Positions 3,001-59,907 are shown, counted from the first letter of the stretch. The stretch is DNA of 64,000 nt from Paraspadella gotoi (GCA_051294375.1 CM119269.1:20254814-20318813), one strand, 5' to 3'. The notes: generated by a model not told the origin, from the sequence alone. Program-made: numbers and translations.

Positions 3001-3346
3001 TCGGATTGATTTCACCCCATCCGGAGACAATGACGGGACTTCCGGCGTCGTAGAAGCTCGTATCGGTAGGGTCCGGCAGGCATGCCGGTTGGACGTTCGG
3101 TGTCCAACTTAGAGGCGTCTTCAGGCGCAGCAGAGCAATGTCGTTTTCGTTCGAGTCCTTGAACAAAGAGTTTACTGAGATCAGTTTTTAGCGTGCTCTT
3201 AAAGAAATTGTCGGATGTTTTCATTTTTATGATACATGTGTCTCCCTACTCTCTATGTCGTGGTCTTCCGCAATATTATATTATTTTATTTTATTCACTT
3301 TTATTAACCTCGTTGTAATCAGGATGCAGAATAAAGTCTGCGATTT
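1..3346. repeat. Segment duplicated at 9360-12699 (copy A, ends at N-gap)
   Basis: Starts TACCGCGTCCAGAGTGTAAC as at 9360 and is collinear to ...GTCTGCGATTT (12699); differences are mostly homopolymer-length indels. Confidence 0.95.
1729..3346 (-). CDS. Trypsin-like serine protease 1, partial duplicate copy (3' exons only, cut by gap)
   Basis: Exons encode NDIALLRL (catalytic Asp), PACLP, SGWG and [10 protein letters not shown] (catalytic Ser); essentially identical to 11074-12699. Confidence 0.85.
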
Positions 3347-12300: not shown

Positions 12301-12699
12301 CTTCACTTATCTTTTGGACACGAGAGTCACTTACTAAACCCTTAAACTTACTTTTCGGATTGATTTCACCCCATCCGGAGACAATGACGGGACTTCCGGC
12401 GTCGTAGAAGCTCGTATCGGTAGGGTCCGGCAGGCATGCCGGTTGGACGTTCGGTGTCCAACTTAGAGGCGTCTTCAGGCGCAGCAGAGCAATGTCGTTT
12501 TCGTTCGAGTCCTTGAACAAAGAGTTTACTGAGATCAGTTTTAGCGTGCTCTTAAAGAAATTGTCGGATGTTTTCATTTTTATGATACATGTGTCTCCCT
12601 ACTCTCTATGTCGTGGTCTTCCGCAATATTATATTATTTTATTTTATTCACTTTTATTAACCTCGTTGTAATCAGGATGCAGAATAAAGTCTGCGATTT
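9360..12699. repeat. Segment duplicated at 1-3346 (copy B)
   Basis: Collinear near-identity with 1-3346. Confidence 0.95.
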
Positions 12700-30100: not shown

Positions 30101-33100
30101 TGCCCAAACAAGATCCACGAGGTACTTTTACCAGGAATAGAATATTACAGATGAATTTGCTAGAGGGAATGAATTTGCAGAGGAATGAATTTGTCAACGG
30201 AATGAATTTTGCATAGTAATGAATTTGCACAGGAATATACAGAATATTGCACAGGAATGATTTTTTGCATAGGAATGAAATTTGCACAGGAAATAAATTT
30301 GCACAGGAATACATTTGTAACAATAATTTATTCTGTGCAAATATTTTTCATATTCCTGTAAAAATTTATTCCTGGTGCAAATTATTACTATCTTCCTCTG
30401 CATTTCACTTTTCTGTCAAATTCATCCTAGTGCAAATTTATTCCTGTGCAATTCAATCTGGTTCAAATTCCATTATCTGGTGCACAATTTCCTACTGTGC
30501 AAAATTCAATCCTTTGCAAATCATTCCTGTACAAATCATTCCTGTGCAAAATCTCATTCTGTACAAAATTCATTCTCTGTGCAAAATTCATTCCTGGCAA
30601 ATTCAATCCTGTAGCATTCTTCCATTACAATTTGTAAAAAATTCCTGTTTACAATTAATTCTGTGCAAATTATTTTCTTTTAAAAAAATGTAGTTCTACA
30701 CAAATTCCCATCTTGGTGAAAATTCCATTTTGTACATAAAGCATTCTTGTGCATATGCATTCCTGTGCAAATGAATTCCTGTGAAAATGTTTCCTGCAAA
30801 TGATTTCTTGTTCAAATTTTTTCTGTGCAATTCATTTCAGTAAGCAAGAGTTCCCTTTGCTAAAGTATAAGTTACAATGTATTCCTCGTGGAATTCCAAC
30901 GGCGAGAATTTTTACCAATTCCATTGCACACAGGTCGAATTTCAGGGTTTGAGATATTATCGCAACATCCTGTACATATGCCTATCCTGTACAAATTTGT
31001 TCCTGTGCAAATTGTTCTGGCAATACATTCCTGGCAATGTTTCCTTTGCAAATTCATCAGTTGCAAAGTTATCCATTTTTCATTTTTGTTTTCTGTGCAA
31101 ATGTATTCCTGTACAATGTATTCCTGTGTAAATTTGTTCTTGTGCAAATGTGTTCCTGTGCAAATGCATCCTGTGCAAATTGTTCCTGTGCAAATGTGTT
31201 ACTGTGCAAGACATTCCTGTGCATGTATCGTGCAATATTTTCCTGTGAAATATATTCCTGTGCAAATGAATTTTCCTGTTGGAAAATCTTCACTTCAGTT
31301 GCAAGAGTTATCCTTTTTCCAATGTTTTCTGTCAATATGTATATTACTGTACAAATGTATTCCTGTGCAATGTGTGGGTCCCCTGTGCAAAATGCATTCC
31401 TGTGCAAATTATCCCTATCCTGTGTGTGCGCAAATAATTCCTGTGCAAATGTAGTGTGCAATATTTCCTTCAAATGTATTCTGTGCAAATTTTTCCTGTG
31501 CAAATTCATTCAGTGCCAAAGTTATCCCTTTTTATTCCAAATGTTTTCTGTGCAAATGTATTAACGTGGTACAAATGTCTTTCCTGTGAATTTGTTCAAG
31601 TGAATGTGTCCTGTGCAAATGCCATTTCCAGTGCAAATTGTTCCTTTTTGTGCAAATGTATTCCTGAGCAAATATGAAATGTATTTCGTCAAATTGGCAA
31701 AAATTCACTGTGGACAAATGATTATTCCTGTGCAAATGTTGTATCCTGTCAAATGTTGTCCTGTGCAAAAACATTTTTTTGAAATGCATTTCCTGTACAT
31801 ATTTCATTCCTGAGCCATCATTCTTTGTACAATATTATTCCTATGCCAATTCATTCCTATGCACAATTTATTCCTGTGCAAATTTCATTCCTGTCAAATA
31901 TATTCCTGTGCAAATTTATTATCTGTAACAAATTCATTCCTAGTGCAAATTTAATCCTGTGCCAAATTAAAAATCCTGGCAAATCTTCCATTACAATGTA
32001 TTCCTTTCCCAATATTCCTGTCCAAATTATTTCTTTCAAAAAAATTATTCCCGTGCAAATTATAACTGTAAAATTCATTCCTGTGCTATTCATTCCTGTG
32101 CAAGAATGATTTTGCACAGAATGATTTTGCAATGAATGATTTGCACTGGAATAATTTGCCAGGAATGAATAAGGGTGAAATTAGGCAAAGCTTTTCTTAA
32201 ATAGGTATTATATTTTTGGTTTACCTAGTATTAACTGAATAAAAGTAGGCAATTTTAATTGAGGAAAGATCTTTAAAACTAAGATATAACTGATAAACTT
32301 TATGATCTAATTTGCCTAAGATTTAAAAGGGAAAAGGTTATCTTTAATAATTGAAGCCAAATGATATTAAATTAAATATTTAGTCTATTATTCTATTTAG
32401 TCTACCTTGTGTTGTATAGATCTCCTCTATTTCCAGAAGACAACACAGACCTCCCCTCCCAAAAAGAGTATTAGATATATAAGCAAATAATGTTTTAAAA
32501 AGTAATATATATAATTAAATAATATAGTTTTAATAGTAAATATTCATAATATATATAAGATAGTGAAACGAGTAATTTGAAATTTCATATAAAATTTAAA
32601 ATAACAAAATATGATATTTTTTGGTATATTTTAAATAAAATATTTATCAAATTAAAACTTTAATTTGCTAACATTGAAATCAATTATTTTTAGCCCAAAT
32701 ATTTTAAATAAGATAAAAAAATTTATAAAAAAAAAATAATAGCTAAAAATATATTTGGTTTTGGTGTTTGGTGTTTTGGGTGATAGGGGTTGGGAGTCTA
32801 TTTATATTGTTTTTTAATTTAAAACATTTTTCAGTATGCTCAATATTATTTTTACTTTGAGTCAAAATCTTGTTAATGATAAAAAAATAGAAGGAAAATT
32901 TTTTAGATTTTTTTTTATTTGAAAATCATATCCAGAGGATATTTACTTTCATATCGAGCTCGAAATTTTTTAATTATAATCAGCTGGGAATTATTGATAT
33001 CATATAATTCTGTAAATAATCAATTAGTTTTGACATTCTAAATAAGATACAAACATTTTGGGCACTTGAGTCTTGTGTACATTTTACATCATCTTTGATC

Positions 33101-36100
33101 GAGGTTTTAATCTTGTCATCATATCAGGATACAACTGAATACCTTACATTGAAAATCTCTTTAAATGTATGCATCCTATGTTATTACTAATTTCTTTATT
33201 ATCTGTTATTTTTTTATTTATCATGAATTTAATCTTCTTAATAATTTTATTGGTTCTGGTCTGTATTTCCAAGTATTTTACTACTTAATGCTGATACTCA
33301 TAAAAAAATTCATGCCATCTGGGAAAAGTATTTTTGAGGCTTAAAATATTAGTAATACAAATTGAAAATATAGTTTAAAAGAAATTAAAACAATAAAAGA
33401 AATATATGTTTTTATTTATCTTAAAAATAATATAAGACAAAATATTTTGATTCAGAAATTGTCCTATCTTAATTAAAAATATTTCTTTACCTAGGCAATA
33501 TCAGTAACACTTTGCTCACTGGCAATGCTCAGTTAAATCAACAAAATATTACCTAAGTTCACCCCTTAGAAGAATTTGGTAGAGGAATGAATTTGAAAAG
33601 AAGGAATTTGCACAGTAATATTTGCACAGGAATGAATTGCACAGAATAAATTTGCACGGAATACTTTTTGAACGGAACAAATTTTCACAGGATTTGAATT
33701 TTGAACGGAACATAATTTGCACAGGATAATTCACAGGAATACATTGTAAAGAAAGAATTTGCACAGCATGAATTTGAACAGGAACAATTTGCACTGGAAT
33801 GAATTGCACAGAATAAATTTGCACAGAATGAATTTGCACAGAAATTAGTTTGCATAAGATACATCGTAAAAGAAATAATTGTACAGAATTAATTTGCACA
33901 GGAATACATTTGTAACAGGAATATTTGCACGGGTTGAATTTGCACAGTAATGAATTTGCACGAATGTTTGTAAGGAATAAATTTGAAAAGAATGCCTTTG
34001 CCAGGAATACTTTTGCTCTGGAAACTTTTAGCAAAGGGATAAGTTATACAACAAATGAATTTGCACAGGATTGAATTTGCCAAGGAATGAATTTTGCACA
34101 AGAATGTATTTACACTGGAATAATCTCACAGGATTGAATTTTCACACAATGAATTTGTAGAGGAATAATTTTGCACAGGAATGAATGCATAGGAAGAATT
34201 TGCACAGGAAAATTTACACAGGAATACAATTGCACACTAATGAATTTGCATAGGAATGAATTGCCACAGGAATAAATTGCACAGGAATAGCATTTGCACA
34301 AAAATTTATTCCTGTGCAAATTCATTCCTGTTAAAATTTATTCTGTGCAATTTTTTTCTCTGCAAATCATTCCTGTGCAAATCAATCCTGTGCAAATTTA
34401 TTCGCTGTGCAAATCAATCTGGTTTCAAATTCATTTCTGGGCAAATTCCTCTTGTGCAAATTCCAATCCTGTGCAAATTCATCTGTGCAAATCAATCCTG
34501 TGAAATTTATTCCTGTCAATTATCCCTCTAATTATGTCCATCCTGTGCAAATTTATTCCTATGCTAATCATTCCTGTGCAAATTCATTCCTGTGCAATTC
34601 TTCCTTTTCAAATTGTATTACTGCGCATTTTTATAGCTAAGTATAGTTAATATAGTTGATAAGTAGGAGGTTAGGGTTAAGTGGGAGGTTAGGGATCATA
34701 TCGGTATCAGGTTACGAATTATGTAGGTTAGGGTTAAAGGTTAGGAACTAGGGTAAGGTAGGGTCAGAATTAACATTAGGGATAAAGCTAGTTAATTTCA
34801 GAATTAGGCTAAGGATTTGAGATTAGGTTTTGGATTAGTATGATTATATATTAAAAATATTTAAGGTTAAATATTTTGAAAATTGCCGAATTTTTATATT
34901 AAGTTATTAACTGAAAACATTTAATACTCTAATAATCTCAGGTTTAAATATTATTATTGTAACTGGTAGAGCCTTCCTTTGATTCTAAAGTATTGTTTCT
35001 AACCCTGTTAATTTTTTTTTTAATCTAATCTAAAACGTTCGATTCCCGCGGTAGTATTGTTTAAAAATTTAAGATTTTTAAAAAGTAGTCGCCAATAGAT
35101 AATAAACCTACTAAATTGGTACTTAATAAAGAAGAAATTTAAAAAATAAAAATAATTATAAAATTTTTGGAGAGTCTTTTAAACCCAAGCGTAATTCAGT
35201 AAAAGGGTTATGGTTAAATAAATTAGAATATGTTAAGTATAATAACGTTGTATTCTTGGTAACTTGGTAAAAGGCCTTCCTTTTGATTAGGAAGGTTGCT
35301 GGTTCTAACCCTGTGAACGTTTTTATTTTTATAATGCCAAAAGCTGGACGTTCGATTCCATGGTAGTATTTTTAAAAAAATTCAAACAAAAAAATTATAT
35401 AAATAATAATATTGATATTATAAGAAGAGGTGCCAATAGATATAAACATAATAAATTGTATAGCCAGAAATAAAAATTATGATGTATTTAGGATTTCCTT
35501 TACGCTTTTTTAAAATCTTCATTCAAATTATAAAACTTAAAAAAAACTAAAAAACCAAATAGTATCACTTTTTATATATGTTTGGTATTTGTTTTGATGC
35601 TGACGTTTTTTGTCTTTCAAATATATAGTCAAAAATAGGGCGCCAAAAATATTCTAAAAAACTATTAAATAGTTTCTCTTTCTAACAAACTAAAAACTTC
35701 AAGTGATGAATCAAATTGACATTTTACTAGCCAATAAAAAACTATCTTTTTGTTGGTAACTGTAACAAGCCTTCTTTTAATTGAAAAACATGAAGGGAGC
35801 TGGTTCAAACCCTGTGACCGTTCTCATTTTTTTTTATGCCAAAGCTTTAAACGTCCGATTCCCGTCATAAAGTATATTTTTAAAATTAAGCAGAAAAAAA
35901 AATATAATAAATAATAAATGATAAATATATTAAGAATAGCGGGCATAATTACTTAACCTAATCAATTGTATACCAAAATAGAAATATGGTAGCATTTATG
36001 ATATTTCTCCTTTACACCTTTTAATAAAATCATCATTAAAATAGTAAAACTTTTTAAAAACTAATAATCCCAAATGGTATCACTTTTAATATAGGTTTGT

Positions 36101-36848
36101 ATTCATTTTGATGCTGACGTTTTGGTCTTTCAGAATTATATTGTCAAAAATAAGGCCGCCAAAAATACTTCTACACACTATAAAATAGTTGTCTTTTCAT
36201 ACAAACTCAAACTAAATGTAAAGTCATCATTCAAAATATAAAACTTTAAAAAAACCTAAAAAATCGCCAAATGATATCATTTATATGTGTTTGTATTCAT
36301 TTTATGCGGACGTTTTGGTCTTTCAGAATATATTGTCAAAAAAGGGGCGCCGAAAAATTCTAAAAACATTTATTAAAATAGTTCTTCTCATACAAACTCA
36401 AAACTTAATGATGGAATCAAATTGTACTTTTTTCTAACCAATAAAATATCGGTCACTCAGTATCAAAATTTTCGACCAATAGAAGTCTCGTCACACTCTG
36501 TCGCAGCAACGGTCACAAATGTCGCATCAAAAGTGACATGTTCCGCAAAGCGTGTCACAGTCGGTCACATCAGAAAGGAAGATTTGGTGTGGACGTCACG
36601 ATGGAAGGAAGATATTGTTGACATGTCACTCACGGTCACCAACTTTCCAGCCAAGTCAGTTCCGCATCATAAGAAGGAAAATAATATTCATTCCTTCTTT
36701 CTTTCTTGTCTTTCTTTCTTTCTTTCTTCTTGTCTTTCTTTCTTCTTTCTTTCTTCATTCTTTTCTATTTTCAGCTTTCTTATTATTTTTCTTCTTTTTT
36801 TTTTAGACGTTCCTCCTCGTCTCTCTCTCTCTCTCTCTCCTCTCTCGT

Positions 36849-39900: not shown

Positions 39901-42900
39901 ACTCCCGGTTGAAAACTCTTTAGAATTCCGATCGTTAGCTCCTCTTTTACTTTTACTTTAAATAAAAATTTCACCAAAATGGACTAATTCACTTTTACCA
40001 TGATCGTATCATATCAAAATAACCTAATAAAATGTAAAGAAAAATTTTGAGAGCCCTTCAGACACTTTGCCAAAGATTCCAAAATTGGACCTCATTTGTT
40101 GAACAGGAACATACCTCAGTCATGTTTATATCGTTTTCAAGGAAAAAAATCCCTTTCATTTCTATATAAAATCAGAGATGGAAAATTTTTCGTCCAGAAG
40201 CAGTCTATTTGTTCTGGCTTGTTTGATATCAAGATGTTTATGATTTGACAAGAGAAAAAAATGCGAGCCCTTCAGATGCAACAGGATCAGAATCAAGTGT
40301 TTTTTACATCGAATATTTTACCAGAATTTTTACCAGGAGCGTTTATATTGTTTGGTAGTCAGATTTGAACGAAAATCTCCATTGAAAAAGTCTTCCTCGA
40401 TCTCTAAGAACGACGTAGACTCCTAAGTTATGAGTAAATATAAGTAAACGAATTCAAGTAAATATGACTTTGTTTATTCCATTTAAATTCATTTCAATTC
40501 GCACGATTCCATCCAAACTTTATATCCAAACTTTAGCTCAATCACACACAAAATTTCAAGTCAATCTTGCACTCACGTGTAATTGAGTTTTTTAATTTTC
40601 GCAGTAGGCTATATTTATATATAGTACAATCCTTATAAAATCGAAAAATTTCAAATTAGGCTTTTCTTAATTTTGATTGCAGATTTGAATTCCTCGTCAA
40701 AAGTTGATAAAAGAAAATATAGATCGTTTTTAAAAATTATTTTATTAAGTGGTTAAAATTTAAAAAACTATATTTAATATATAAAAAGTTAATTTTCAGC
40801 TTAAACTATAGCTTTTTCTAATTTTTGACCCACTTAATGAAGGAATTTTTCAAAAAGAGTTATATTTCTTTTTATCAACTTTTTATGACAAATCCAAATC
40901 TGCAAAAAAAATCTTTAAAAAAACTGTTTTGAAATTTTAACATTTATTGGTTTAGTACTAGTATAAATATGGCCTACTGCGTTAATTGTAAATTTATTAT
41001 AAATTTTTTATTACATAAATGTTTATTAGTATAATGTTGTTCGTTCCTCACTTTTAGAATTTTAATTAAAGTTAAATTTAGGAATTTTACTACGCCTTAC
41101 TGCTAGGCGGCACCGGGCTAGAACCCCGGACCTTTGGGTTGGGAGGCAAATGACTTGCCTCCGGCACCAATGGCACTGATGAGGTTGGTGGATTTAAGTC
41201 CACCATACTAACAATTAATTTTACCATTTTTTAAAATTTATCCTTTCATTAATTAATTTTTGCTTTTCTCCTCGGCTTCATTTCTTTCTTTTTTTTCTTC
41301 TAACTCTTTATTTCTTCAACTTTATATCTCGCTCAAATTGAGCCTCAATCACACACTTTCCGACTCAGTACCCACACACAAAATTTGTCTAAACCATCTC
41401 ATGATTTTAATTAAAATATAAAAATTCCTTAATCCTCAATTCAATTCGATTCCATCCAAACTTTTATATCAACTTTATATCAAACTTTAGCTCAATCACA
41501 CACAAAATTTCAAGTCAATCTTGCACTCACGTTTAATTGAGTTCAAAGCAAAGGGGGACGGACGGACGGACGGACGGATGGACATATAGATGGACAGACA
41601 GACAGACGGATGAACATATGTTTTTTTACATAATTTATCATAATTCCATGCTCTGACATGAAGTGTCTTACCGACAAGATTGTGGTGACGGACCGACGGA
41701 CCGACAAAGTGAAATTATAGAGCCGGAATCTGCTGTAAGTAGATCCGGCTAATAAAAAAATTCAACGATATTCAGTCCAGATTTTCTAAATTTACGGGAA
41801 AAGTTAGGATTCTTAAGGGAACCCAGTGATCGAGGGGGGTCAGGGGGGGTAAAAGGCTGATATCATAACGTTTGGTCCTTCAATCTCCCCCGATTCCAAA
41901 AATGTAATTCTTTCTTCTCTAGTCCAAGGGGAAAGTGGTCAAAAAATTCGATGTTGTCAGCTCGCCTATTTTGTTTAAAAATTCGGTAAGGGGCAAATCT
42001 TTTCCAAGTTTCGATTTTTTCTTTCACGTAAGATGGTATAGAATTTTTTTTTGTTTCCAACTTTACACTAAAAATTATTCGAAAACGAAGGCGAAGACCA
42101 TGACAAAAAATATGACGAAGAAAAGACAACAAAGAATACGGCAGCAAAAAAGAGAGAGAGAAAGAAAGAAAGACTCGGAAAGAGAGAGTTTCAAATTTAA
42201 GCAAGCAGCGGGGATTTAGTACAGATTAATAAGTTAATAATTGACATTTTTATTGTGATTATGACGACGAAAACGACAAAACAATGACAAAAAATACGGC
42301 GAATATGACGAAAAAAAGTTAGAGGAAAACGACGATGAAGAGGAAGACAAAACCGATGACGAAAAAGACAAAGAAGACGAAAACGACGGCGAAGACGACG
42401 AAAAAGATGAAGCCGAAAACAACGAAGACGAAAAACGATGGTGAAGATGACGGCAAAGACGAACTCATAAACACTGTCAATGATTTTTTATTATAAATTT
42501 ATTGACATAGTGGTAATAACCTTTCTTTTTCGTTGTTATGTGTATTAGAAATTTAGAGGCAATTTGGTTTCCTCACCACTTGATCACTATTCTTTCTCAA
42601 CTCTGTGTGGGAAACTTTGCCCTCTCTCTCTCTCTCTCTCCCTTCTTTCACACAAAAAAACTGTCTAACAATTCACAAATTATTTGACGCTGATGAAGGC
42701 TTGCATTCAAAGCCGAAACGTTTTGAAACGTTTCTTTGAAATAAAAATTTGTTGTAAACTGAAACCAAATTGCCTATAAATTTATTATAACGAAAACGAC
42801 AACGAAACGATGAAAACGACGACTAAACGACAAAGAAAACAATACGAAGACGACGACGAAAACGACAACGAAAACGATGAAGACGACAAAAACAACGTAA

Positions 42901-45900
42901 GATGACGACGAAGACAACGATGACGACGAAGACAACGATGACGACGAAGACAACGATGACGACCAAGACGACGAAAATTACGACGAAAACGACGACGAAA
43001 AAGATGACAAAAACGACGACGAAAAATGACGGTGAAAACGACGACGAAAACGACGACGAAAATGACGGTGAAAATGACGGTGATAATGACGACGACGGTG
43101 AAGACGACGACGACGAAACTGTGTGTAAGTTAAAGAGAGGAGAGAGACAGAGAGAGAGAGAGAAAGAGAGAGAGTCATCGTTTAAATTGAACGAACTTCC
43201 ATGAATAATCACTGGATTTACCGGGTCTCCAATATTTCTAAATTTGTTTTTTTTTTTAGATTCGGAAAGAATTTTAGAAAGAAATCGGTGAAAACGACGA
43301 CGATGAAAACTGACTGTGAAGACGAAGACAAAACCAACTCACTCTCTCTCTCTCTCTCCAAACCGATGACGAAAAAGATGAAGAAACGACGGCGAACACT
43401 TTGTCATTGAATTCTTTTTATTAGAAATTTTATTACAACGAGTGAGATAGAAATGAGAGAGAAAGGAAAAAAAATATAATTGAAACCAATATGCATTTTC
43501 AATTTTATTATAAATTTGATTTTGAAATTCATTAGCCTCGCAGACGTATTTTGCTGGTCGTCTTCTATTTCTGTTAAAAATATTGGTTAAGAGTTAAATT
43601 TTATTCATTCACTATTTACTAACTTTATAATAAGATTTTAGCATCAATATCTCCATTTTATTGTTGGAATTAGTCCAGTCTTTTCCGTACGATGTTGAGT
43701 TCATCACTTTCCGTCGGGGCCACCTCGTACGCTGATTATTTTCAAATCAATTCACTAATTGGATAGAAACGTAACCTCCAACATTAATACAAGTATGAGA
43801 AGAGGAAGCGCTCTTTATCTCTCCTAAAATTAAATCTGTTGCAAACTACAGTCAACGGAAACCGGAAAGATATCACATAGGGCATAAGAAATGTTTACCA
43901 AATGAAATGACATCCTTGTTTGAATTTTAAGAGGGATTTGACCTTTTTTTCTGTCCTTTCCTGTGCGTGTATGAAGGAGATGATATCACTATTAAAATTC
44001 CTTTATCAGAGGAGGCCCAGACCCAAGAATTCAGCTTTCTGCATTAAAAAATAAAAATTCGAATTATGGAAAAATGACTTCCCAAGTGAAAGTAGAGAAT
44101 GGAGGGTATCAGTATTTAGGGGAGATCAATTAAAAATTTTCCAAATAAATATCTCGTCCTTGTTCGAATTGCAACAAGGAGATGGGAATTTTTTCTCCAC
44201 TTTCCCGCGCGAAGAAAAATTAATGACTATCACCATTCGAATTCATTTAATGATAGACCCTTAAGCTTATGATATCATTTTTATCACTGGGTCCCCTTAA
44301 GGTTTACGTTTACGTAGAATAAAAAAGTCGAGACAGAGTGCAAAAAATTGGAGCCCGAAACAAAGTTACAAAGGTATACCGTATAGAGTTTGACTACAAA
44401 AAAATATGAAATTAGTACAACCAATTTAAAAAATATCAATTCATTGGATAAATGCTCTCTTGCCCCTGACGTTAGACACGCTATGTAATAGAAAAATGGC
44501 AAGAGAAGTAAACAAGCTTTAGCAACAAAGACGTGGTGACATTGACAGTAATTATTAATGATAAAAATAAATAAATGAAAAAAGTACTTTGCAAGTATAG
44601 GTGAAAAAAAAGTAAGAGAAAAAAAGGAAGGGAAGAGTGAATCACTGAATCACCGTCACCTTTGACTTCCTCAATTCCTCATCCCTCTCAGGTTGATGGA
44701 ATCGTGACCAAAACCGGAGACCCGACTTCCTACATCTGGTGCGAGGCAACGACCAACAAGGGTGTCGTGGTCAAGTGCACTCCGGACGGTTACGTCTACA
44801 ACGAGGACATACCCGCCTGTGTCCCTCCGCAGTATAATGCCGTAAGGAAGTGGTGGTGCAATGGCAATATCCACTAGCACATATTTACAATTAAAAAACT
44901 TTTTTTCTTAAATCAGGCGACGACTAAATGCAAAAACCTTCCGAATACCTGGACTTGCACTACAAACTTTAACGTGGGAACCGTCTGTACTCTCACTTGC
45001 GATACAGGTGAGGGCTGAAAAAGATAAATGTAAAATATTGTTCAAACTTTCTCCAATAAAGCCTTAAAGTGATCGTGACTGAGTCAAGGTTGAAAATAGG
45101 AGTCAATTCGAAATTCTTCTTTCTGGAGTTTCGCGTTTGAAAATAAAAAGTTTAATAAATTTTTATAGTTGCCCGTTTACCTTTGGTTGGGGTGCTTAAA
45201 ATGCCGGTACTAGTGTAAATATAATTCAAAGCAAAGTTGCCTTTTTTTCTCGTTTTACAAGCTTGTTTCCCTGCTTCTCTAAGGTTACGCTCCCTCGGAC
45301 GGAGGAAATGGGATGGTCACTTGTTTGCAAGGATCGAACACGCACGCCAAATGGGACAAACCTATTCCGACATGCAAGTCCAAATGCGTCCCAAATCCCT
45401 GCGTGCAAGGAACATGCGCGCTTCAGGGGGGCAACGCCCAATGCACTTGCACTGCCGGTTGGGAAGGTGAGAATAAGAAAGTGAAGGACGACGTATGGGC
45501 GAAATAGGCTCGGTTTACGAGGATCAAAAATTTGTATAGAAAATTCGTTTTTTAACCGTTTGTTCATTTGATTTTTTTCTTCTTATAGTAAGTTTTTCCA
45601 GCTAACAAAATTTATTAAGCTACGAATTTTTTTATCGAGGCCCAACCTGCACAAAAGTTAAGTTCATGTGTGGCTCCAAAAATTGCGGAAACAAAGGCTA
45701 CTGCATCAACAACATCAACGATCCAAAATGCGAATGCGTTGCTGGTTACGAGGGGAGCACTTGCGCCGACAAGGTAAATCTCAAATGTGGTATGGTTTGG
45801 AATTCTTGGGTAAGGAAGTGAAGATTAAAAACTTGTAGTTAATTGAATTGAATATTCGTGAAAGAACTTAAGGGAGTGGTCTTTTCATACAATTGAAACA

Positions 45901-48900
45901 TTCTTTGAAATATTATACCACTTCATTGATAGGGAAGCCAGGTACTCTGGGAGTGAATAAACGAGACTGTGAGAGAGTCTTGATTGAAAGCTTGCAGGGA
46001 CCTGCTATGTCATTATCTTGTAAGAGTGATGGAGGCCTTAAACCACCAAAGCCTGTCCAAAGTCAGGGGCAAGATAGCTTATTTATTAAATGAATGGATA
46101 ATTTTTATATTGGTTGTACCAATTTCTTAATATTCCTTTTTCTCGTTTTCAGGTTCAGTGTCCCGATCCGACCGCAGCGGTGAAAGGGACGATTGCACCC
46201 ACAGCATCCAAATACGAATTTGAAGATAAGGTCAAGGTCACGTGCGCCACCGGGTGAGTAAGAGTAAGAGAGAGAGATAGATATGGATATTGAATGAAAC
46301 GAACAAATTCCCAATGATCAGCAAATACGTCTCCGGAAAAGCGGCCACCTCCAAAACGCAAGATATTCAGTGTGGAGCAGACAAAAAGTGGACGCCAAAT
46401 ATCGAGTGTCTGCCGGTCGACTGTGGCCAGCCCAAAATACCGCCTGAAAGCGGCTCGGCGACTGCCACAGGTAAGTTTGAATAAACGACCAGCACGAAAT
46501 CCATCCCGCAGGAAGCCGCTCGGATGCCATAGGTAAGTTTGTATCAACAGCTAGCCCAACAACTTCCCATCAAGCTGGAGTCCAACTGCCATAGGTAAGT
46601 TTAAATTAAACTCCAGTTCAACATCGCTCCGACAACCGACAATAGTAAGTTAAACTTAATGGCAAAACAAACATTGCAATCGCTACAATGTCGCCACATT
46701 GTTTGCGAAGAAAAAGTGACTGAGCAGTCACAAGTAACAGAGTTGTGACAGAGAAAACTTGCGACAGAGTTGACTGTTGAGTGTTGACCTTTTCTCGATT
46801 CTCCCTCACAGCCACCGTTTACGACAGCACCGCAGATCTGAGGTGCCAAGTGGGTTACTCCATCCCTACTCTTAGCGGTGCCAACAGCGGAACTTTGAAA
46901 TGTCAAGACAACGGAGAGTGGGGCACTGCGGTTTGCCAGCCGCATAACTGTCAAGCTCTCACGGCGCCTGCCAACGCTCTATCCGTTACTCGTGAGTACT
47001 TTAAATTAAAAGTTATGTCTTTCGTTAATTCATTCATTTAATCATTTTTAGTTTTATTTATTATTGATAATAAATTTTTATTATTATTATTATTAATATT
47101 ATTATTTTACAACTATTCATAGAAAAATTTAAGTCATTTTGTCTTTCTTTATTCCCTTCCGAGACCTAGGTTGATTCTTTAATTTCCATTTTCATTTATT
47201 CATAAATTCACCTAATGAAGAGACAGTAATTATTGATATGTGTTAATGACAGAACCGTTCAATATAAGCAGTCCCTGAGCTTCGGATCAGGCAGTAACAC
47301 CGAGTTAGTTAGGCGGCCACCGGGATAGAACCCCGTGCCTTTGGGTTGGGAGGCGAATGACTTGCCTCCGGCACCAATGGCCACTGATGAACGGTTGGTG
47401 GATTTTAGTCCACCATACTAACAATTAATTTTACCATTTTTTAAAATTTATCCTTTCATTCATTAATTTTTGCTTTTCTCCTCGGCTTCATTTCTTTTTT
47501 TTTCCTCCTAACTCTTTATTTCTTTCACCCTTAGAACCCGTGACTACTTTTGGCAAATCGGCGACGATCACCTGCAGCGTGGGTTACATCGTCAAGGACA
47601 CCACCTCCAACACGGGTTCCGTCATCTGCAAACTTCCCGGCACCGGAACTAACGCCGCCGGTTGGGCCGATTTCCCGGGATGTGTGGAGAAGGTCTGCGA
47701 TGGTCCGCCCGTACCGACCTCGCCTACGGGTGAGTCAATTCGTCTCGAATTAAAATTTTACATGTCGTAGAACAAGTGAAGATTTATACTTGCCACAATA
47801 GCATAAAATATTGAATTTTTAATTTTACAATTTACCTATTTTAGGGACATTGTTATTTAGTGAGTTGTCATAAAAATTGTATAAAAAAGAAATGTAACTC
47901 TGTTCACAAAATTCACGTTGGTCAAAAGTTTTATATATATATATATCATAAATAGATAGCGGCATTATATGTATTTTTTTTAGTGTGGCATATGGTGGAT
48001 GAAGATATTTTGAAACGATTTTTCGGTTAATTTTCAGGTTTAACCAACATCGGAAGTCTTAACTACAACGGGAATTCTTCACCTTACAAATACAACAATG
48101 AGGTACAAACTTTGATGATGGTCCATGAACGACTTGAACGTATCATCTAAACATAAATATCTATTTTTTAAACCTATTGTCGTATCGTATCCTTTCTTTG
48201 CGTTGGGTAGTATCATTAAATGAAGAATTTTGTTTTCTTAACAATTTTGTATAAAGTGAAAATTATTTTCCCCCGCAATCTAACCTCTTCAGGTGACCCT
48301 CCAATGCCAAGCAAATTACAAAGTCAACGGCGGCGACGCAAACAAAAAACTCAAATGCTCCTACACCGGGTGGGTTCCGATGACTGTGACGCCGTCTTGC
48401 ACTCCGCTCAAGTGCAATATAGCATTCGGGACGGGATTCGCCAACGGAGACGTCGTCTTCTCCAACTCGGACAATGTCGGCACTAAAGCCACCATTACTT
48501 GCAAGCCGGGATATATCATCGACTCCACGGTCGGAACGCTGCTAACTCAAGTTTAAAATATACTTTCGTATTATTTCAGTCCTTTCAGTTCTGCTTTTCT
48601 TTAATATGATCTACTTTAAGACTCGGACGGCACATAGGTCCATTCTGTACTGAACATTATTCATCTCCATTTTTTGGTTGTGCCAGGAGTACTCTAGAGC
48701 AACTCTATAATATCACGTGTAGGTGGTTCGATCGGTGGTTCTGTCTGTTTGTCTGTCTATCCATTGGCCTGTCTTACATTTAAATTGATCAAAGTAATTC
48801 GGGTAATATTGCCATAATTCAGTTAATAATACATAGTAGTAGGGTGATATACCATAAGATTCAGAATGTGCACGTGTTTCATATGATGACTGAAAAAAGC

Positions 48901-51028
48901 GCGGGGTATCTCACAAACTGGCGTAGGGGCTGCGGACCCTCAGTGTCCGCCTCTGTCGCTGGCATGTTTAAACCACCTTCGTCACGTTTAAGCCATAATC
49001 GGGATAACCCGGGATTGAACCCGTGACTCATGTTTCAAACGAGATGATTTAGACTACACAGCCATTGAGACGAGGCTGATGACGGACAGCGGTGAGGCAG
49101 CTTTAAGTTATGCTGCAGTATATGTAGTCAATCCTCTGAAAATAATTATTCAAAAGTAAGTCACATAAGAGCTTGAACTTACCAGTTACTGTATCCATGC
49201 TGTTGACGTGCCTTTTAAATCTGTCTTCCCTCAATTTTTTTTAGTTTTAAACGTTAAGCTATCAATCAATATCTATAATTTCCTCAACAATTGAATTAAA
49301 CAAATACATCTTCAAAACGACGACTTATCGTTTGATGCCTCATCTTTTTTTTTCCTCTCGCAAAGACGACCACCACGAAAGATCTGACTTGCTCGGCCAA
49401 CTCTCAGCAAGACGACACCGTCTGGAGCCCCTCAAGCATCCCGTCATGCAACAAACGATCTTGTCCCGGCCTCAACAACCCGACCCATGGCTCCTGGTCG
49501 GTCAACGCGGGCTCCTTCGGCGATAAGGCCAAACTCACCTGCAATACAAACTACTTCCCTTACCCGCAAAATGGCAATGATGTCGCTTGCGGACCCGCGG
49601 GAAAGTGGTTGCCCGATCCAGCAACCTGTAATGTGCGTAGTGAGACCGTTTGTGAACTGGCAAGGGTTGGTTTTATAAAAAGGACTGGCAAAGAGAAAAG
49701 TGTAGTGACGAGTAGAAATCGTGGTTGGATTAATGAAAGTAGGGAAACTAAGAAGTTCTGGCGGTATATTTACACCGCCTCAAAGTAAAAAAAAAAAGAA
49801 TAAGAATAGCATTAAGCGAATCAAAAAAAAATATTTTTTTTTCTCTAATAGGTAAAGTCTTGCGATCCGGTGGAGATCACCAACGGTAATGTGAAATTGA
49901 AGAGCAACAACAACGTCGTCACTGGATCAATTCCGGTTAACGAACAAATTTATTTCGTCTGCGACAACGGATTTAAGCTAAGCAAGGAAGGTTAGTCGCA
50001 GATTGGTAATGTTTTATTATTTCATTTAAGTAACATTCGGATTCTACCCGAGTCGCGGATCCGATTCCATTTTCGGTTCTGATTCCATCTGTGATTATTT
50101 CAAGTGTTTTATTTATTGAAAGGAGAATAACTTCTTTCCATCTTCCACTCAGTGACTCTAACCTGCCAAGATCAACCCAGCCTTAGCGTAGGCAAGTACA
50201 GCGACGATGCGCCCACCTGTCAGAACGAAGACAATTGCGTCGTCAACAAGGTCCCCGTCAATTGCGGCGCCAACGGAAATTGCAAAGACGGCGTCGCCAA
50301 ATACGTGTGTGAGTGCAATCCTGGTTGGACCAATGTCGACGTCAACGACAAGACCTCGCTCTGCACGACGCCGGTGAGCAGATTCGAAATCGGACGGAGA
50401 GTAGGTGCTATTTATTCTCTTGTCGTCAATATGGCGCTGCTTTGGTGTAGTTTGTTTTTAAGTCTCGTTTCTGTTTTAATTCCCAGGTGGATCCATGCCA
50501 AAACCAACCGTGCAAAAACAATGGGGCCTGTACCCTCAACACCGCCTACACAACAGATTCCAACCTTTATCCCTATAAATGCGACTGCAATCCGAGCACC
50601 AGATTTTCTGGGTACGATTGTGAGAAAGACAACCAGATTTCCGCGCCAGCCAAATGTTCTGGTGAGTTCAACGTCAACTCGTTCTCTCGTTTCTCGATTT
50701 TTTTTTTGATTCATCCTTGTCATCTTTTATGAGGCAGTCTATATGGCAGAAAATTATAACAATAATGTTAAAAATAGAAACCGACCGACTAACTTTTGAA
50801 TTTTTCTTCCGTTTCTTCTCAACGTTTTTCTCCGCCATAACCCTTTCAAAAGATGTGGGTAGTCAACCTCACCCGGGCAGCTGCTTGAAGTTTTACACCT
50901 GCCAATGGGGTAACTCTCAAGTCCAAAGTTGTCCACCCAACAACGTCTTCGACTCGACGATCAGTAATTGCCAAGTGCCTCTCCTGGCGAAGGCCGCGTC
51001 CAAATGCACCGCCAACAACAACTTGTGA
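21104..51028 (+). CDS. Secreted multidomain protein: signal peptide - CBM14 - sushi - EGF x2 - sushi x7 - EGF x2 - CBM14 (16 exons)
   Basis: Exon 21104-21238 (MGLVFVLISCCCVLL...ECTNLQ, phase 0) joins 44692-44841 (..YIWC..KC..YVYNEDIPAC); then 44917-45007, 45284-45466, 45640-45773, 46153-46253, 46322-46469, 46812-46991, 47535-47729, 48038-48102, 48293-48529, ~49366-49632, 49852-49990, ~50153-50373, 50488-50661, 50852-51028 (HPGSCLKFYTC..SCP..VFD..C). Cys/Trp spacing fits CCP, EGF and peritrophin-A domains. The link to exon 1 crosses N-gaps. Confidence 0.85.
22100..22730. repeat. ~18-20-bp satellite (TTTTTCAACTTGCATAA)
   Basis: About 30 degenerate tandem units. Confidence 0.9.
22860..23970 (+). 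mobile_element. Non-autonomous Helentron/DINE-like element with internal ~90-bp subrepeats, (GGAC)n tract and terminal hairpin
   Basis: Subrepeat AAACTTT..AGCTCAATCACACAC..ACAAAATTTC; end GACAAAGTGAATATAGAGTCGG...CCGACTAAAAA matches 41555-41760. Confidence 0.6.
24600..34625. repeat. ~16-bp satellite (AAATTCATTCCTGTGC) in alternating forward and reverse blocks, partly highly degenerate
   Basis: ATTCCTGTGCAA blocks versus TTGCACAGGAAT blocks, with polarity switches near 26370, 29440, 30320, 32105 and 34290; AT-rich spacer at 32200-33550. Confidence 0.9.
34668..34835 (+). repeat. Degenerate TTAGGG-like tract
   Basis: Multiple GGTTAGGG/TAGGG variants next to the satellite end. Confidence 0.55.
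34950..36420. repeat. Degenerate tandem repeats: tRNA-like unit x3 (~34958, 35257, 35753) and ~170-bp unit x3 (~35550, 36070, 36270)
   Basis: Recurrent GGTAA..GCCTTCCTTTTGATTAGGAAGG..GGTTCTAACCCTG..ACGTTCGATTCC, and recurrent GCTGACGTTTTGGTCTTTCAGAAT..GGGCGCCAAAAA. Confidence 0.65.
37022..38953 (-). CDS. N-terminally acylated (globin X-like) globin, 3 exons, nested antisense in an intron
   Basis: Exon 38748-38953 MGACGCCC...SW..FGVIIFEDFFAMFPEEGEKF (B10 Phe, C2 Pro, CD1 Phe); exon 37927-38074 MWVHA (E7 His), GFLHY (F8 His); exon from 37213 with H-helix TRDAWENL. In-frame TGA at 37106-37108; next stop at 37022. Confidence 0.88.
38290..38685. repeat. ~34-bp minisatellite in globin intron 1
   Basis: Unit CACTTTCTCTCATATCACTTTCCACCTCCTACCT, about 11 copies. 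Confidence 0.9.
40600..40981. mobile_element. Palindromic MITE (~380 bp)
   Basis: Ends CGCAGTAGGCTATATTTA / TAAATATGGCCTACTGCG; imperfect complementarity continues inward (TGCAGATTTG/CAAATCTGCA, AAAAGTTGATAAAA/TTTTATCAACTTTT). Confidence 0.85.
41097..41205 (-). mobile_element. tRNA-headed element family 1, truncated copy (ribozyme part lost)
   Basis: Reverse complement matches 51243-51346 and stops after AGCAGT. Confidence 0.85.
41320..41760 (+). mobile_element. Helentron/DINE-like element end with (GGAC)n and hairpin GCCGGAATCTGC-TGTAA-GTAGATCCGGC
   Basis: Same family as 22860-23970; the subrepeat also occurs at ~39590 and ~40500. Confidence 0.65.
42549..42783 (+). mobile_element. Inverted-repeat-bounded Penelope-like remnant with degenerate minimal hammerhead motif
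   Basis: IR AAATTTAGAGGCAATTTGGTTTC / GAAACCAAATTGCCTATAAATTT; CTGATGA-A-GGCTT-GCATTCA-AAGCC-GAAACGTT at 42690-42722. Confidence 0.6.
42790..43116. repeat. Degenerate (GAC/AAC/GAA)n trinucleotide tract (similar tract at 42260-42460)
   Basis: Direct reading. Confidence 0.85.
47216..47415 (-). mobile_element. tRNA-headed element family 1, internally deleted copy
   Basis: Reverse complement matches 51243-51466 except for loss of the 5' half of the ribozyme; retains P4 CCTGA-TCCGAAGC-TCAGG. Confidence 0.9.
48670..48770 (+). mobile_element. Helentron-like element terminus
   Basis: TTTTTGGTTGTGC...GAGCAACTCTATA followed by a (GTCT/GTCG)-type tract; like 51840 and the reverse complement of 60420. 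Confidence 0.5.
48919..48995 (-). ncRNA. Twister ribozyme-like RNA, P5-type permutation, diverged (family 2)
   Basis: Reverse complement: TGGC-TTAA-ACGT-GA-CGA-AGGTGGTT-TAA-ACAT-GC-CAG..CTG-AGGG-TCCGCAGC-CCCT-AC-GCCA; twister element order conserved, several point mutations. Confidence 0.6.
48996..49085 (-). mobile_element. tRNA-derived head of element family 2
   Basis: Reverse complement has arm CTCGT-TTGAAAC-ATGAG, B-box GGTTCAATCC, and upstream TCATCAG as in family 1; acceptor stem decayed. Confidence 0.6.
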
Positions 51029-51110: not shown

Positions 51111-51242
51111 AAAAAATGAACTAAAATTTTATTCGTACTAATTAATTAAATCGTCGTTTTTTCATGAGATGTATGATATATTTCGTATCGTATCCTTGTT
51201 GCCCAAAGATTCCAGCTTTTTTCGTGAAATATATATATATTA

Positions 51243-51466
51243 TGGTGGATTAAAATCCAACAACCGTTCATCAGCGGCCATTGGTGCCGGAGGCAAGTCA
51301 TTCGCCTCCCAGTCCGGGGTTCTAGCCCGGTGGTCGCCTAGCAGTTAAGAGGGACGGGGCGCTTAACCCGCCTGTAACATGGTGTTACAGCCTGATCCTA
51401 AGCTCAGGGACTGCTTATATTGAACGCTTCTGTCACTAACACATAACAATAATTACTGTCTCTTCA
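51243..51466 (+). mobile_element. tRNA-headed SINE-like element family 1, most complete copy, inserted in (TA)n
   Basis: Three copies in the window; head 51274-51337 has acceptor-like stem GCGGCCA/TGGTCGC, A-box-like TGGTGCCGGAGG and T-arm CCGGG-GTTCTAG-CCCGG. Confidence 0.85.
51340..51415 (+). ncRNA. Twister self-cleaving ribozyme, P5-type permutation (family 1)
   Basis: P5 AGCAGTT/GACTGCT; P2' GAGG; conserved GA; T1 CGG; GGCGCT at the P1 position; U^AA at 51364/51365; P2 CCC; T2 GC; P3 CTGTAACA/TGTTACAG; P4 CCTGA/TCAGG with loop TCCTAAGC (twister UNNNAAGC loop). Confidence 0.75.
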
Positions 51467-56174: not shown

Positions 56175-57335
56175 TGATACAACTCGAAAATGATAACAAC
56201 GACGACAAAGAAGAGAATTATATGTATTTTCCTCTTTTGTTATGACCTATGAGTTACGGAGTTTGCTTCAAAGACCAAGTTTAAAACTTTGTTTCAACTA
56301 AAATATACCATTTAAAATTAACAGATCGCCTCTCAATGTTTTCTTTTTTTTTTTCTTTTCCTGACTTCGCTCCTCTTCCTTTTTCCCTCTTCTTTCCCCG
56401 AAACCTCGTAAAACCGAAAAAGATGGTTGAACGAGATAAAAAAAAAAGTTAAACCCATGAATTCGGATATTTTTTTTTTTTTTCACTTTTTTTTTCCTCT
56501 CACCTGTTCTTTGCTTCTTATATTTTCCTTTTTCTACCTCCGCTCTTCTTCCTCTCTTCGCTTCTATATTAATAGTATTATCACATCATCATAACCTAAT
56601 GCTCAAACTCGATTCCTATCTTCTCCTAACCGATCGGACGTTTTCAATCCCTCGTTTTTTTTTCCATGCAATTTCTATTGCGTCTATCTCGTGTAAATTC
56701 TTGCACGACTGCATAACCAGTTGCCACTCCATTCAACTTTGCGCTCTCTTACTTGGTAAATTATCATAATTATACTAATATTTCCCCCCTTCGTTATCTG
56801 TTCTGCTCCAGTTCCACCCTTTGTAATCTTTTTGCGATCGCTTCCGCTCCTCTTCCTCTTTAAAATCTCTGATTCCTTTTATTCCTCTTTTCCAACGGAC
56901 AGAATTTGAATTTTTTTTCCTTCAAAAAATTAACCTTTTTATGTTTTTTTTTTCTTTCGGTTTCCAGCGGTTATTTTTTCATTCTTTTTCTTTCCTTTCT
57001 TGTTTGTTTTTCTTTTAGTTTTAAGTTCACTTACTTTACTTTTTTGTTGTTGTTTTTTTTTCTGTCTCAAGTATAGAGATTAAGGTCAGACTCGAACTAT
57101 CGGGCATCTTCAATTTTCGAAAAAAAAGGGACGCTGCAATGAAAAAAATGTTTATTTATGGTAAAAGTTTTCGTTTCTACAGTAAAAAAAAAACACCATA
57201 GTCGAAATATAAGCAGGGAAACAAACCAATTAAAAAAAAATTAATCTCCATAAATGGGCGTAGATAACGTTGAAAATTAACGGGCTTTTTTCTCCTAAAC
57301 CACCCATAAAATGGGCGGTAACCACCCGTTTGGTT

Positions 57336-59582
57336 TCACTGTCGCTCCTCCGAACTTTTCTCCGATTTGAGTTGAAATTGAGGAATTTGACAGCGAATGA
57401 CTTCCCCTGAATCGTTGTCCTCCAACTCGAGGTGACCCCAGATCGATCCCGCGGAGGCCTGGGCGCGGAAAAATGGGGACAAGAAAGGTTTTTGATATAG
57501 GGAATTTTGATTGTAGGGGACCAGCGGCTTTAACGAACCACCGTATGTCCAATCATCTTCTCTATTCGATTACTGCAACGCATTAGTATTATACATTATA
57601 CTTGATAAGTTTTTAAATGAATTGTTATATTTGTAAAGCGTTGATGAAAAAAACTCCTGACCGAGAAGCTGCAGTAGCTCGTGGTCTGGAAACTGGGATT
57701 CCATTTGCTGAGGACGGCATGCCGACCATCGAGACCTCGTTCCATTTTCTTGTCGTAAGTTCCGTTCTGAGGCGAATTGTGGTAAAGAGAGAGATGAATT
57801 TTTACGACCTCTTCTGAGAAGGTTGGGGCGTAGGAGAAAAAGGTAAGAAAAAGTAGGCAATTCTAAAAAAAAAAATTAGGATATTTAGTATCAATATTAA
57901 ACCGAAAATATACAACGTAAAACAACTCTCACCCGAGAGGAAACCGTCCAGTTTCTTCTTTTAATTCGAAAATTTTTTTCTCCTAGATTCTCGACCCTTA
58001 AAATGTAGCGCCACCAGTACCGAGTATCTATAAACATTTCGACGAGTTGATTGATTGATTGCTTGATCGATTGATGTTCTCTCTCTCCAAGCTCACCCCC
58101 TCTTTCCCCGCCGTGCGATCCCATGTAAAACGGAACCACTGTGATTCTCACGTCACCCGTACACGCCCTGTAGGCCACTTCAGGTTTCAACCAGCGCAGG
58201 TTCCGCTTCCTCCACTTGATCAAAGTCCTCGTGCCAACGTTGGCCGGCTCCTTGGCGTCGCGCGCCGGCGGCGCCGCTTCGAAGAAGCGTGAAAAGAGAT
58301 CGTGGGTGATAGGCGGGCGGCGTCGGTGAGCGTGGAAGGCGGAGAGGGCGTTGCCGAAAGGGAGGAGGCTGGAAGAGGAGGAGGAGGAGGAGGAGGAGGA
58401 GGAGGAGGAACGGAGTGGTTGAGAAGGGAAGGTTGGATTTCAAGTGAAAGAAAATTGGGTGAAATCTTGCTGATGCCGCAAAAAGGGATCTGCCACCGGG
58501 AACGCCGACGACGACAAGATCCAAGATCCTCACCTGAAATCGTCCTCACTCTCCGTGAGACGGTAAGGCAGGATGTCGGCGTTGTGGACGTAATCGATCC
58601 CTGGCATCGAGAAGACGACGAGCCGATCGCCGACGTCGCGACCCAAGAAGCTGACCCCGTCAACGTTGCTGCGGACGTAGGAAGAGTCGCCCGCGTCGAC
58701 GAGCACGTTGTAGAAGAGCTCGGGGGAGCGGGCCGAGAGAGACTGTGGAAGGCGAAGCGGTAAAGGAAGAATAGCGGGAAGGCGAGTTCGGACAAAATCA
58801 ATCATGTACTCTTTGATTTTGACATTTTGACATCGAGAAACTTGAAGTCAAAAAATCTAAATTTCCCTCTACATATGTTAGGATAAAAACTCGGGACCTC
58901 GTGACCTTTTAACGGTACCTTACAGTACTCGATGACACCGTTAAGTGAAGACATTATATAGTATGAATGAGGTTTTGACCGTCTGATCTCTCGTCAGCGA
59001 AAGATGTCAACCCGCCCCTAGACCCGGTTCCCCTTCCAAAGATGTCAACCCGCCCCTACACCCGGTTCCCCTTCCAAAGATGTAAACCCGCCCCTAGACC
59101 CGGTTCCCCTCCCAAAGTGGCCCGACCGGGTTCTCGATGTCCCCAGTCATGATCTCGATCGTCTTCTCTCCGTCCGCGACCGGCACCGTCGGCGTCGTCG
59201 CCTCGAAGATCTTCGTCTTCCACGGGAGAAGGATGATGCCTCTGTAGCCGAGTTGCTTGTGGAGGAAGAGCTGGCCTGAAGGATGGGGTATCGAAAGGGG
59301 GATGAGGAGGGTGTGGAGGGGATGAAAAGGGGAGACGAATGGTCAAAGAATTATTGAAAGATGATAGTCCACAACGACGTCGACAACGACAGAAGCTACT
59401 CCATAAACGCATCAACGTCGACGTCCTCAACTACCCGTCTTGTAGCTGAGATTGGTGTCCATCGGATCCAGTGGAGTCTGCAACTTCCCGACTTCCTGGA
59501 GGAGAGTCGACGCTCGACGCCGACCGTGGACGAGCGAGTCGGCCGCCGCCCTGCACGCAACGACGCCGAGGCTGCTGAACAT
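57336..59582 (-). CDS. POLDIP2: Polymerase delta-interacting protein 2 (YccV-like + ApaG domains), 7 exons
   Basis: Exons 59435-59582 (Arg-rich transit-like N-terminus, ..YKTG), ~59128-59275 (QLFLHKQLGYRGIILLPW), 58533-58743 (YNVLVD..MPGIDYVHNADILPY), ~58097-58368 (HDLFSRF..VRITVVPFYMG), 57932-58027 (YWWRYILRVENL), ~57661-57767, 57336-57458 (GSIWG..IPQFQLKS*); motifs recalled from animal POLDIP2. Confidence 0.93.
59000..59117. repeat. ~38-bp tandem repeat x3 in POLDIP2 intron 2
   Basis: AAAGATGTCAACCCGCCCCTAGACCCGGTTCCCCTTCC. Confidence 0.9.
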
Positions 59583-59907
59583 TATGATTTAATATATGTT
59601 GGGATAGGAATGTGACGTTGTGTGGTTTTAAAGGGGGCGGGGCAATTGGAGGATAATCGTTTATAAATATTGTTTAAAAAAATTAAAAAAATGAAATTTG
59701 AACTGGAAGTAAGCAAAGGGTTTTTCGCTTGGAGAAAAATTTATCGTTGGTTTTTTCTGACTTTTTTCTTTCTCTCTCTTTGTCTCTGTCTCTCTCTCCC
59801 TATCTCTCCTTCTCTCTCTCCTTTTTAAATCTCTGTTTCTCTCCCCGGTTTGTTTTGGTTTCATTGTGGGGGAACAACTTAAACATGAGCTGGAGATTAA
59901 AACGGAA

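Follow-up and report, generated by a model that had tools for sequence, protein, structure and literature searches.

A repeat on the minus strand of the Paraspadella gotoi genome joins a tRNA-like promoter to a fold of the twister ribozyme, which raises the question of what kind of element would combine the two and what the ribozyme would do there. We addressed this in a stretch of 64,000 nt (the window), whose DNA is of animal type, with microsatellites and short exons. The repeat copy is flanked by Sushi- and EGF-type exons of a gene on the plus strand (Pfam PF00084 and EGF matches), and we infer that it lies in an intron.

Copies were analysed using public contigs of sequencing runs aligned to the window. 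The region is present in nine of 11 runs, which come from three studies and include none on record as RNA. For the repeat in question (family 2) contigs were aligned over 48780-49200 in run X1, possibly the source sample, and in run X9, which is from another study. The preliminary description had postulated a second multi-copy family at this site, and it does exist, with 424 contigs in X1 and 40 in X9. The summed depth, which is not a copy number, is 2-5 x 10^5 on the conserved parts vs 93-95 in the flanks, and on the 5′ side 19 + 8 contigs carry unrelated flanks. Because of this depth excess and of at least 27 contigs with unrelated 5′ flanks, family 2 has many copies, probably hundreds or more. 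Runs X10 and X11, which are from other organisms, gave no contigs for family 2, and X10 gave none for family 1, described below, which does not in itself prove absence from these organisms. Exact patterns of both families had no match in metagenome contigs or prokaryote genomes.

The window copy spans 48899..49116 on the minus strand, as defined by depth steps at 48899 and 49116, and thus extends further at both ends than the interval 48919..49085 originally assigned to it. The 5′ end of the family lies about four bases beyond 49116 and reads TG in the consensus of loose contig ends. Beyond 48899, 31 contigs share a continuation of at least 30 bases (agreement 0.8); therefore the window copy is truncated at its 3′ end and the full family-2 unit is at least 250 bp long. 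The copy is also decayed, as had been suspected, with at least 19 differences from the family majority over 218 bp. A dip of depth in the middle of the family coincides with the densest private changes of this copy, so that the middle rests on 5-15 contigs. The motif TCATCAG, first taken for part of the family layout, is private to the window copy, since position 49080 differs in 57 X1 contigs (99% of the depth) and in 15 contigs of X9. Read backwards, it gives a hammerhead core motif. A hammerhead reading was rejected, as no GAAA with a stem II follows inside family 1 or 2.

The repeat begins with a leader of about 45 nt (49072..49116, minus strand) that starts with a short hairpin, is present at full family depth and lies upstream of the tRNA-like part (49001..49071). 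The latter has lost its acceptor stem and is recognised by ARAGORN at relaxed thresholds only: default settings gave no genes in the window, while the tRNA-like part was one of seven window matches at -ps85 and one of 31 at -ps80, the latter number being too high for naming a donor tRNA. The A box of the tRNA-type RNA polymerase III promoter (49053..49064) is damaged at three places in the window copy. The majority letters at these places, 49053, 49056 and 49058, restore a clear A box of the TRGCY..GG form described for Helenus elements in the available text of PMC10886601. The B box (49011..49021) lies inside a hairpin resembling a T arm. A leader of 35-45 nt precedes the promoter throughout families 1 and 2. 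A tRNA-like part with A and B boxes behind a leader, all inside the repeat, is a Helenus feature; a tRNA-derived SINE would start at the 5′ end of the tRNA. The longest T run is only 2-3 in the three copies measured from families 1 and 2, a figure that is not significant alone.

Downstream of the promoter, 48918..48996 on the minus strand can be folded as a type-P5 twister, as judged by a descriptor, an Rfam scan and the majority letters. The fold consists of P5 (48995-92/48922-19), P2 with one mismatch (48967-64/48987-84), P3 (48961-41), P4 (48940-37/48928-25) with its loop (48936-29), and the tertiary contacts T2 and T1, the latter with one mismatch between 48981-79 and loop positions 48935-33. 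The cut is predicted, from the U-A step at which twisters are cleaved, to fall between 48970 and 48969. All stems and motifs of the preliminary description, including the B box, were found where it had placed them on the minus strand. A type-P5 descriptor that tolerated a single mismatch in each of P2, T1 and P3 matched the window copy and, at 51.3 kb, a copy of family 1, and gave six matches in 2873 dinucleotide-shuffled windows, although it was composed after the sequence had been seen. No match was found in the whole window at the Rfam gathering threshold, and the best that the family-2 copy gave was twister-P1 (RF03160) at 15.2 bits and E 2.3, with a threshold of 67.2. Single-strand folding of the window copy was no better than that of shuffles (z 0.15). 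Rfam scans of the window by E-value otherwise gave simple-repeat noise. A degenerate core pattern yielded 10 viral loci, none of which (0/10) had P2 and P4 pairing, and they were discarded.

Within 48918-48996, all seven majority differences listed for X1 restore a pair, and X9 agrees at all seven: one each lies in P2, T1 and P5, two in P3, which is thereby brought to seven perfect pairs, and two in the P1 segment. The majority stems comprise 4 bp in P2, 4 bp in P4 and 5 bp in P5. T2 is intact, and so is T1 in the majority (1010/1327 of the depth from five contigs in X1, two contigs in X9 and 18 loose ends), whereas T1 is broken in the window copy. The consensus had been forecast to restore the predicted pairs, with P2′ reading ATGT and T1 reading CGG, and the majority agrees on each point. 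The forecast loop TCCGAAGC did not materialise: no G>T is among the differences listed in X1 or X9, so family 2 keeps its loop C. Very probably the family carries a twister fold under selection.

Of the core nucleotides UAA, GA, GC and loop U..AGC, only the loop A that corresponds to A28 is missing, being replaced by C, and the general-base G and general-acid A positions relevant to self-cleavage are found in the type-P5 fold. In the rice twister, A28C has a relative activity of 1.00, and A28C combined with G49A, the state equivalent to the window copy, one of 0.16 (PMC5113685 supplement; matrix columns were counted in rows extracted from the PDF, with the known compensatory pair C25U/G49A, at 0.77, as a check). 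Because of these two values, extrapolated from another twister, family 2 is predicted to be active and the window copy to be nearly dead.

Family 1 has the same layout and is represented by 11,365 contigs in X1, 2,658 in X5 and 874 in X9. Its full-length copy in the window (51241..51466, plus strand; defined by contigs and flanks) has the termini TA..CA, where family 2 starts with TG, and ATAT on both sides within a TA run. A second copy (47216..47417, minus strand; flanks) has a 32-bp deletion in the ribozyme and TTAG on both sides, and by sequence comparison a 5′ half at 41099..41207 (minus strand) is part of a duplication that includes the flank of the 47.4-kb copy. The ends are sharp at 51241 and 51466-7 in three runs, with unrelated, AT-rich flanks, and a 4-bp flanking match is thus present in both complete copies. 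A TA start is also found in a Helenus LTR listed in the available text of PMC10886601. We detected neither a poly(A) or simple-repeat tail at the ends nor clear terminal inverted repeats. Loose ends past the 3′ end have no common sequence (agreement 0.39-0.42), in a table of contig counts, where copies of a shared internal region would be merged into a small number of contigs. As in family 2, the majority letters restore T1. An Rfam scan of the family-1 copy gave no match.

A third family was found by a relaxed scan and Rfam RF02684. Its type-P5 twister fold (46014..46076, plus strand) has a palindromic P1 6-mer and no P3, and reaches 25.8 bits (threshold 37.6), with E 0.0015 in a 301-bp scan and E 0.32 in the whole window. 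A partial second copy lies at 44405-44485, and no tRNA-like head was seen at the family-3 locus. The twisters of families 3 and 1 align with a score that none of 1000 shuffles reaches, and their differences are paired swaps in T1, T2 and P2; the swap in T2 equals G13A/C31U, which has a relative activity of 0.89 in the rice twister (PMC5113685 supplement). Judged from the alignments, these swaps are better evidence of selection on structure than the comparison of families 1 and 2. Standard Rfam thresholds miss very abundant animal twister families.

The twisters of families 1 and 2 align weakly (36/1000 shuffles reach the score), blastn finds no match between the two families, and their leaders, with the private base masked, are not significantly alike (an equal or higher score in 1105 and 3092 of 5000 shuffles). 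Their tRNA parts do align (0/5000 shuffles), but as any two tRNA-derived promoters might. The idea that structure rather than sequence is conserved therefore holds insofar as the majority restores the pairs of family 2, but the true compensatory evidence comes from families 1 and 3 and not, as had been thought, from families 1 and 2. Similarly, the proposed old and diversified superfamily gains a second family with restored pairs, while common descent of families 1 and 2, suggested by their layout, is plausible but unproven, because likeness in the tRNA part and the twister is what shared function would give. A MAFFT alignment of all three families was uninformative.

Between T1 and UAA each family has a gap of only 6-8 nt, and this gap holds a different self-complementary 6-mer in all three families. 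In family 2 the 6-mer occupies the P1 position (48972..48977, minus strand) in the majority, as read from positions 48975 and 48976 and a loose end at 48953, and is broken in the window copy; its self-duplex has -8.9 kcal/mol in the majority vs +3.0 kcal/mol in the window copy. The values for the three families, -8.3, -8.9 and -9.1 kcal/mol, all rank among the best 1.2% of 6-mers. The self-complementary pattern, which was noticed after the fact, is shared by 2.3% of 6-mers. The palindromic segment leaves no room for a hairpin stem P1. Its four inner bases cannot find a partner on their own strand, so that pairing would be between two copies, and the recurrence of a palindromic P1 in three families suggests cleavage as dimers. 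There is precedent in the minimal hammerheads of Penelope pseudo-LTRs, which have a palindromic, too-short stem and are cut as dimers (PMC6765202), and amphibian retrozymes also carry palindromic minimal hammerheads (PMC7229834), as far as the available text of both sources goes. Co-folding of homodimers was favourable for all three twisters, including the decayed copy, and is hence no test of the dimer idea; only the family-3 homodimer folded into the swapped form through P1. Since P1 is dispensable in twister (PMC5113685), monomers may also cut without forming dimers.

Starting from the observed repeat family, its limits, its promoter boxes and the pairing of its fold, we read the window copy, by analogy with described elements, as the solo LTR of a Helenus-type TRIM, with a probability of about 0.5; the twister would cleave the RNA of this element into unit lengths. 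Such a solo LTR fits better than a SINE because of the leader before the promoter, the sharp ends, the missing poly(A) tail and the 4-bp target duplications, the latter being evidence from two of two copies of the sister family 1, one of them in a TA run. Transcription of a SINE begins at the tRNA, so that the leader could not be passed on, and cutting in the middle of the element would cost a SINE its promoter. A terminal repeat that is copied from a circle, or from a template with two repeats, would have neither difficulty. The leader, the palindromic P1 and the LTR-like ends are absent from the preliminary description. RNA polymerase III would initiate within the first repeat, at its tRNA part, and, meeting no run of four T, would read through a short internal region into the second. 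The two twisters, probably paired through their palindromic P1 segments, would then cut at U-A, and the unit-length RNA, with a 5′-OH and a 2′,3′-cyclic phosphate, would be closed by the host tRNA ligase. RtcB closes such RNAs in animals. The RNA circle could be copied by a Gypsy-type reverse transcriptase and integrase, which would restore the leader upstream of the promoter, and insertion would leave 4-bp target duplications, often around single repeats. The model for this scheme comes from plant LTR retrozymes, in which solo LTRs also occur (PMC4918200), and two wasp Helenus LTRs described below have, as judged by eye, a hammerhead at the corresponding position. The short contigs showed neither a two-LTR element nor a primer-binding site or polypurine tract. 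In one X9 contig two equally oriented pieces of family 2 are separated by about 470 bases, and there is one head-to-tail joint in family 1; both are within chance adjacency.

The same promoter-then-ribozyme order in a permuted unit is found in schistosome-type retrozymes (available text of PMC6765202 and PMC4918200), and the repeats could be non-LTR, SINE-like elements of that type, in which tandem arrays are transcribed, cut to monomers, circularised and inserted by a LINE, with a twister replacing the hammerhead. At 230-260 bp the unit is of a size also found among animal non-LTR retrozymes (PMC7229834, same limitation), and the head-to-tail joint of family 1 would be expected. The animal non-LTR retrozymes described there, however, form tandem multimers and have duplications longer than 4 bp, whereas each of the four copies in the window stands alone, both ends of family 1 are fixed and flanked by 4-bp matches, and the head-to-tail case is the only one among the joints listed. 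We regard this origin as unlikely, though deserving serious attention. The dimer logic of the P1 palindromes would also suit a non-autonomous partner or pseudo-LTR of a Penelope-like element with a twister in place of its hammerhead, as a palindromic short stem and dimer cutting are found in the Penelope pseudo-LTR hammerheads. No reverse-transcriptase frame was recognised among the nine window frames scanned, family 1 is fixed at both ends, and there is a single opposite-strand joint among those listed, which makes a Penelope origin improbable.

The fold could further be a fossil that an ordinary tRNA-derived repeat took over from an RTE-type LINE, where it had stood at the 5′ end, and that has ceased to cut or to matter. 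Truncated twisters do occur at the 5′ ends of RTE/Perere-3 LINEs (available text of PMC8501958 and PMC7761336), P1 is reduced here, and a mid-element cut would destroy the RNA of a plain SINE. This is hard to reconcile with pairing kept in the majority of two families and compensatory changes in the third, at places where unpaired mutants are inactive, or with a P5 permutation that has both halves inside the element, and we find it decidedly improbable. A terminal hairpin opens both families 1 and 2 and might drive movement at the DNA level, in a Helitron/Helentron-like element or a MITE with the tRNA-twister unit as cargo. The 4-bp flanking matches, the absence of clear terminal inverted repeats in family 1 and an identical cargo order in two unrelated sequences leave very little room for this.

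Each part of the proposed solo LTR has been described elsewhere. The fold resembles the type-P5 twister of Rfam (RF02684, clan CL00120) in its order of P5, P2, GA, T1, UAA, T2, P4 and loop 4. It differs in that P1 is a self-complementary segment of 6-8 nt, where the Rfam model has 3 bp and a 14-position insert, and in that C replaces the second-last loop A in family 2, and the scores remain below the gathering threshold. With Helenus TRIMs, as described in the available text of PMC10886601, the repeats share a short leader, A and B boxes kept while the tRNA fold is lost, a repeat of about 120-320 bp, 4-bp duplications (in animals), solo copies and several families per genome. Many of the Helenus LTRs listed there have a T run after the tRNA part, in the place where our repeats have the ribozyme, and Helenus elements have two LTRs, a primer-binding site and a polypurine tract, whereas ours are known from single repeats. 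In that text 'twister' does not occur and 'ribozyme' is found in one reference title only. Searching the Helenus consensus set with six loop-4 octamers gave no twister context, although motifs split by line ends could escape, and the set had no match to our families.

Retrozymes offer the other half of the comparison, again within the available text of the sources cited. Plant LTR retrozymes likewise have a ribozyme in the terminal repeat, 4-bp duplications and solo repeats, for which a circular RNA is proposed as template, but their ribozyme is a type III hammerhead, their hosts are plants and no tRNA-type promoter is described (PMC4918200). SINE-like hammerhead repeats of schistosomes and animal non-LTR retrozymes have a tRNA-type promoter followed by a ribozyme in a unit of similar size, and in some of them cutting depends on dimers; they differ by their hammerhead (type I in animal non-LTR retrozymes), tandem arrays and longer duplications (PMC6765202, PMC7229834). 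The Perere-3/RTE variants are twisters with a weakened P1 in an animal retroelement, but their cleavage site defines the 5′ end of a coding LINE, with flanking DNA supplying the rest of P1 (PMC8501958), whereas our fold has the P5 permutation and lies inside the element, behind a tRNA promoter. Among literature titles and abstract openings, a search that covered neither subscription journals, Repbase entries nor bioRxiv supplements, we found no twister in a tRNA-promoter repeat or an LTR, and none linked into dimers by a palindrome. Within that scope the combination is new.

Most eukaryotic twister ribozymes have no assigned biological role, and in the available sources LTR-type retrozymes are described from plants, with hammerheads. 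If the solo-LTR reading is true, a twister in a terminal repeat with a tRNA promoter would be a second job for twister in retroelements, Helenus elements and retrozymes, described as separate groups, would be joined, and it would be explained how a polymerase III element retains sequence upstream of its own promoter. Natural twisters gated by dimer formation would also be useful for the engineering of circular RNA. More generally, and as a tentative proposal that we doubt will hold in every part, animals may have polymerase III-driven LTR retrozymes of the Helenus type, with a twister here and a hammerhead in gall wasps, in which the twister would be an obligate P1-swapped dimer that fires only in two-repeat transcripts and yields an exact circular template. 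In two of five motif matches, as judged by eye, a complete type III hammerhead directly follows the tRNA part of a gall-wasp LTR (Helenus-2_SyJa and Helenus-2_SyUm), with a GUC site, a 7-bp stem I, CUGAUGA, stem II, GAAA, stem III and complementary loops. These wasp hammerheads pass unremarked in the available text of the publication (PMC10886601).

The window contains a third family of type-P5 twisters, found on the plus strand at 46014-46076 and, as a partial copy, on the minus strand at 44405-44485. The family is akin to family 1, the sister repeat of family 2, and compared with family 1 it carries compensatory changes in the pseudoknots T1 and T2 and in stem P2. Two of the family-1 copies lie within a 213-bp duplication (41104-41316 and 47310-47524, 93.5% identity). 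As this duplication includes the family-1 5′ half together with its flank, the two copies are not independent insertions.

In the majority sequence of family 2, the end of the leader pairs with the A box to form a 7-bp hairpin (49080-49053, minus strand), which is disrupted at two places in the window copy.

Read by eye alone, the LTRs of two Helenus elements (TRIM-type miniature retrotransposons) in the supplement of PMC10886601, Helenus-2_SyJa-LTR and Helenus-2_SyUm-LTR, each show what seems to be a full type III hammerhead, kissing loops included. In both it lies downstream of the tRNA part, and the article text makes no remark on a hammerhead in either LTR.

Several other features of the window were observed. 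A direct duplication of 3.3 kb (1-3346 and 9360-12699, 98.9% identity) is either recent or an assembly artefact. Short diverged repeats built on TGTGCA/AAAT-like units are densely clustered in both directions at 24600-34600. Three or more tRNA-like units, all degenerate, in the same orientation and 71–81% alike, lie in a very AT-rich block at 34950-36450, which may be DNA of organelle origin or the remains of an array. Strongly diverged exons of an ApaG-domain gene, which we take to be Poldip2-like, occupy 57300-59700 on the minus strand, with one homologue at 70%.
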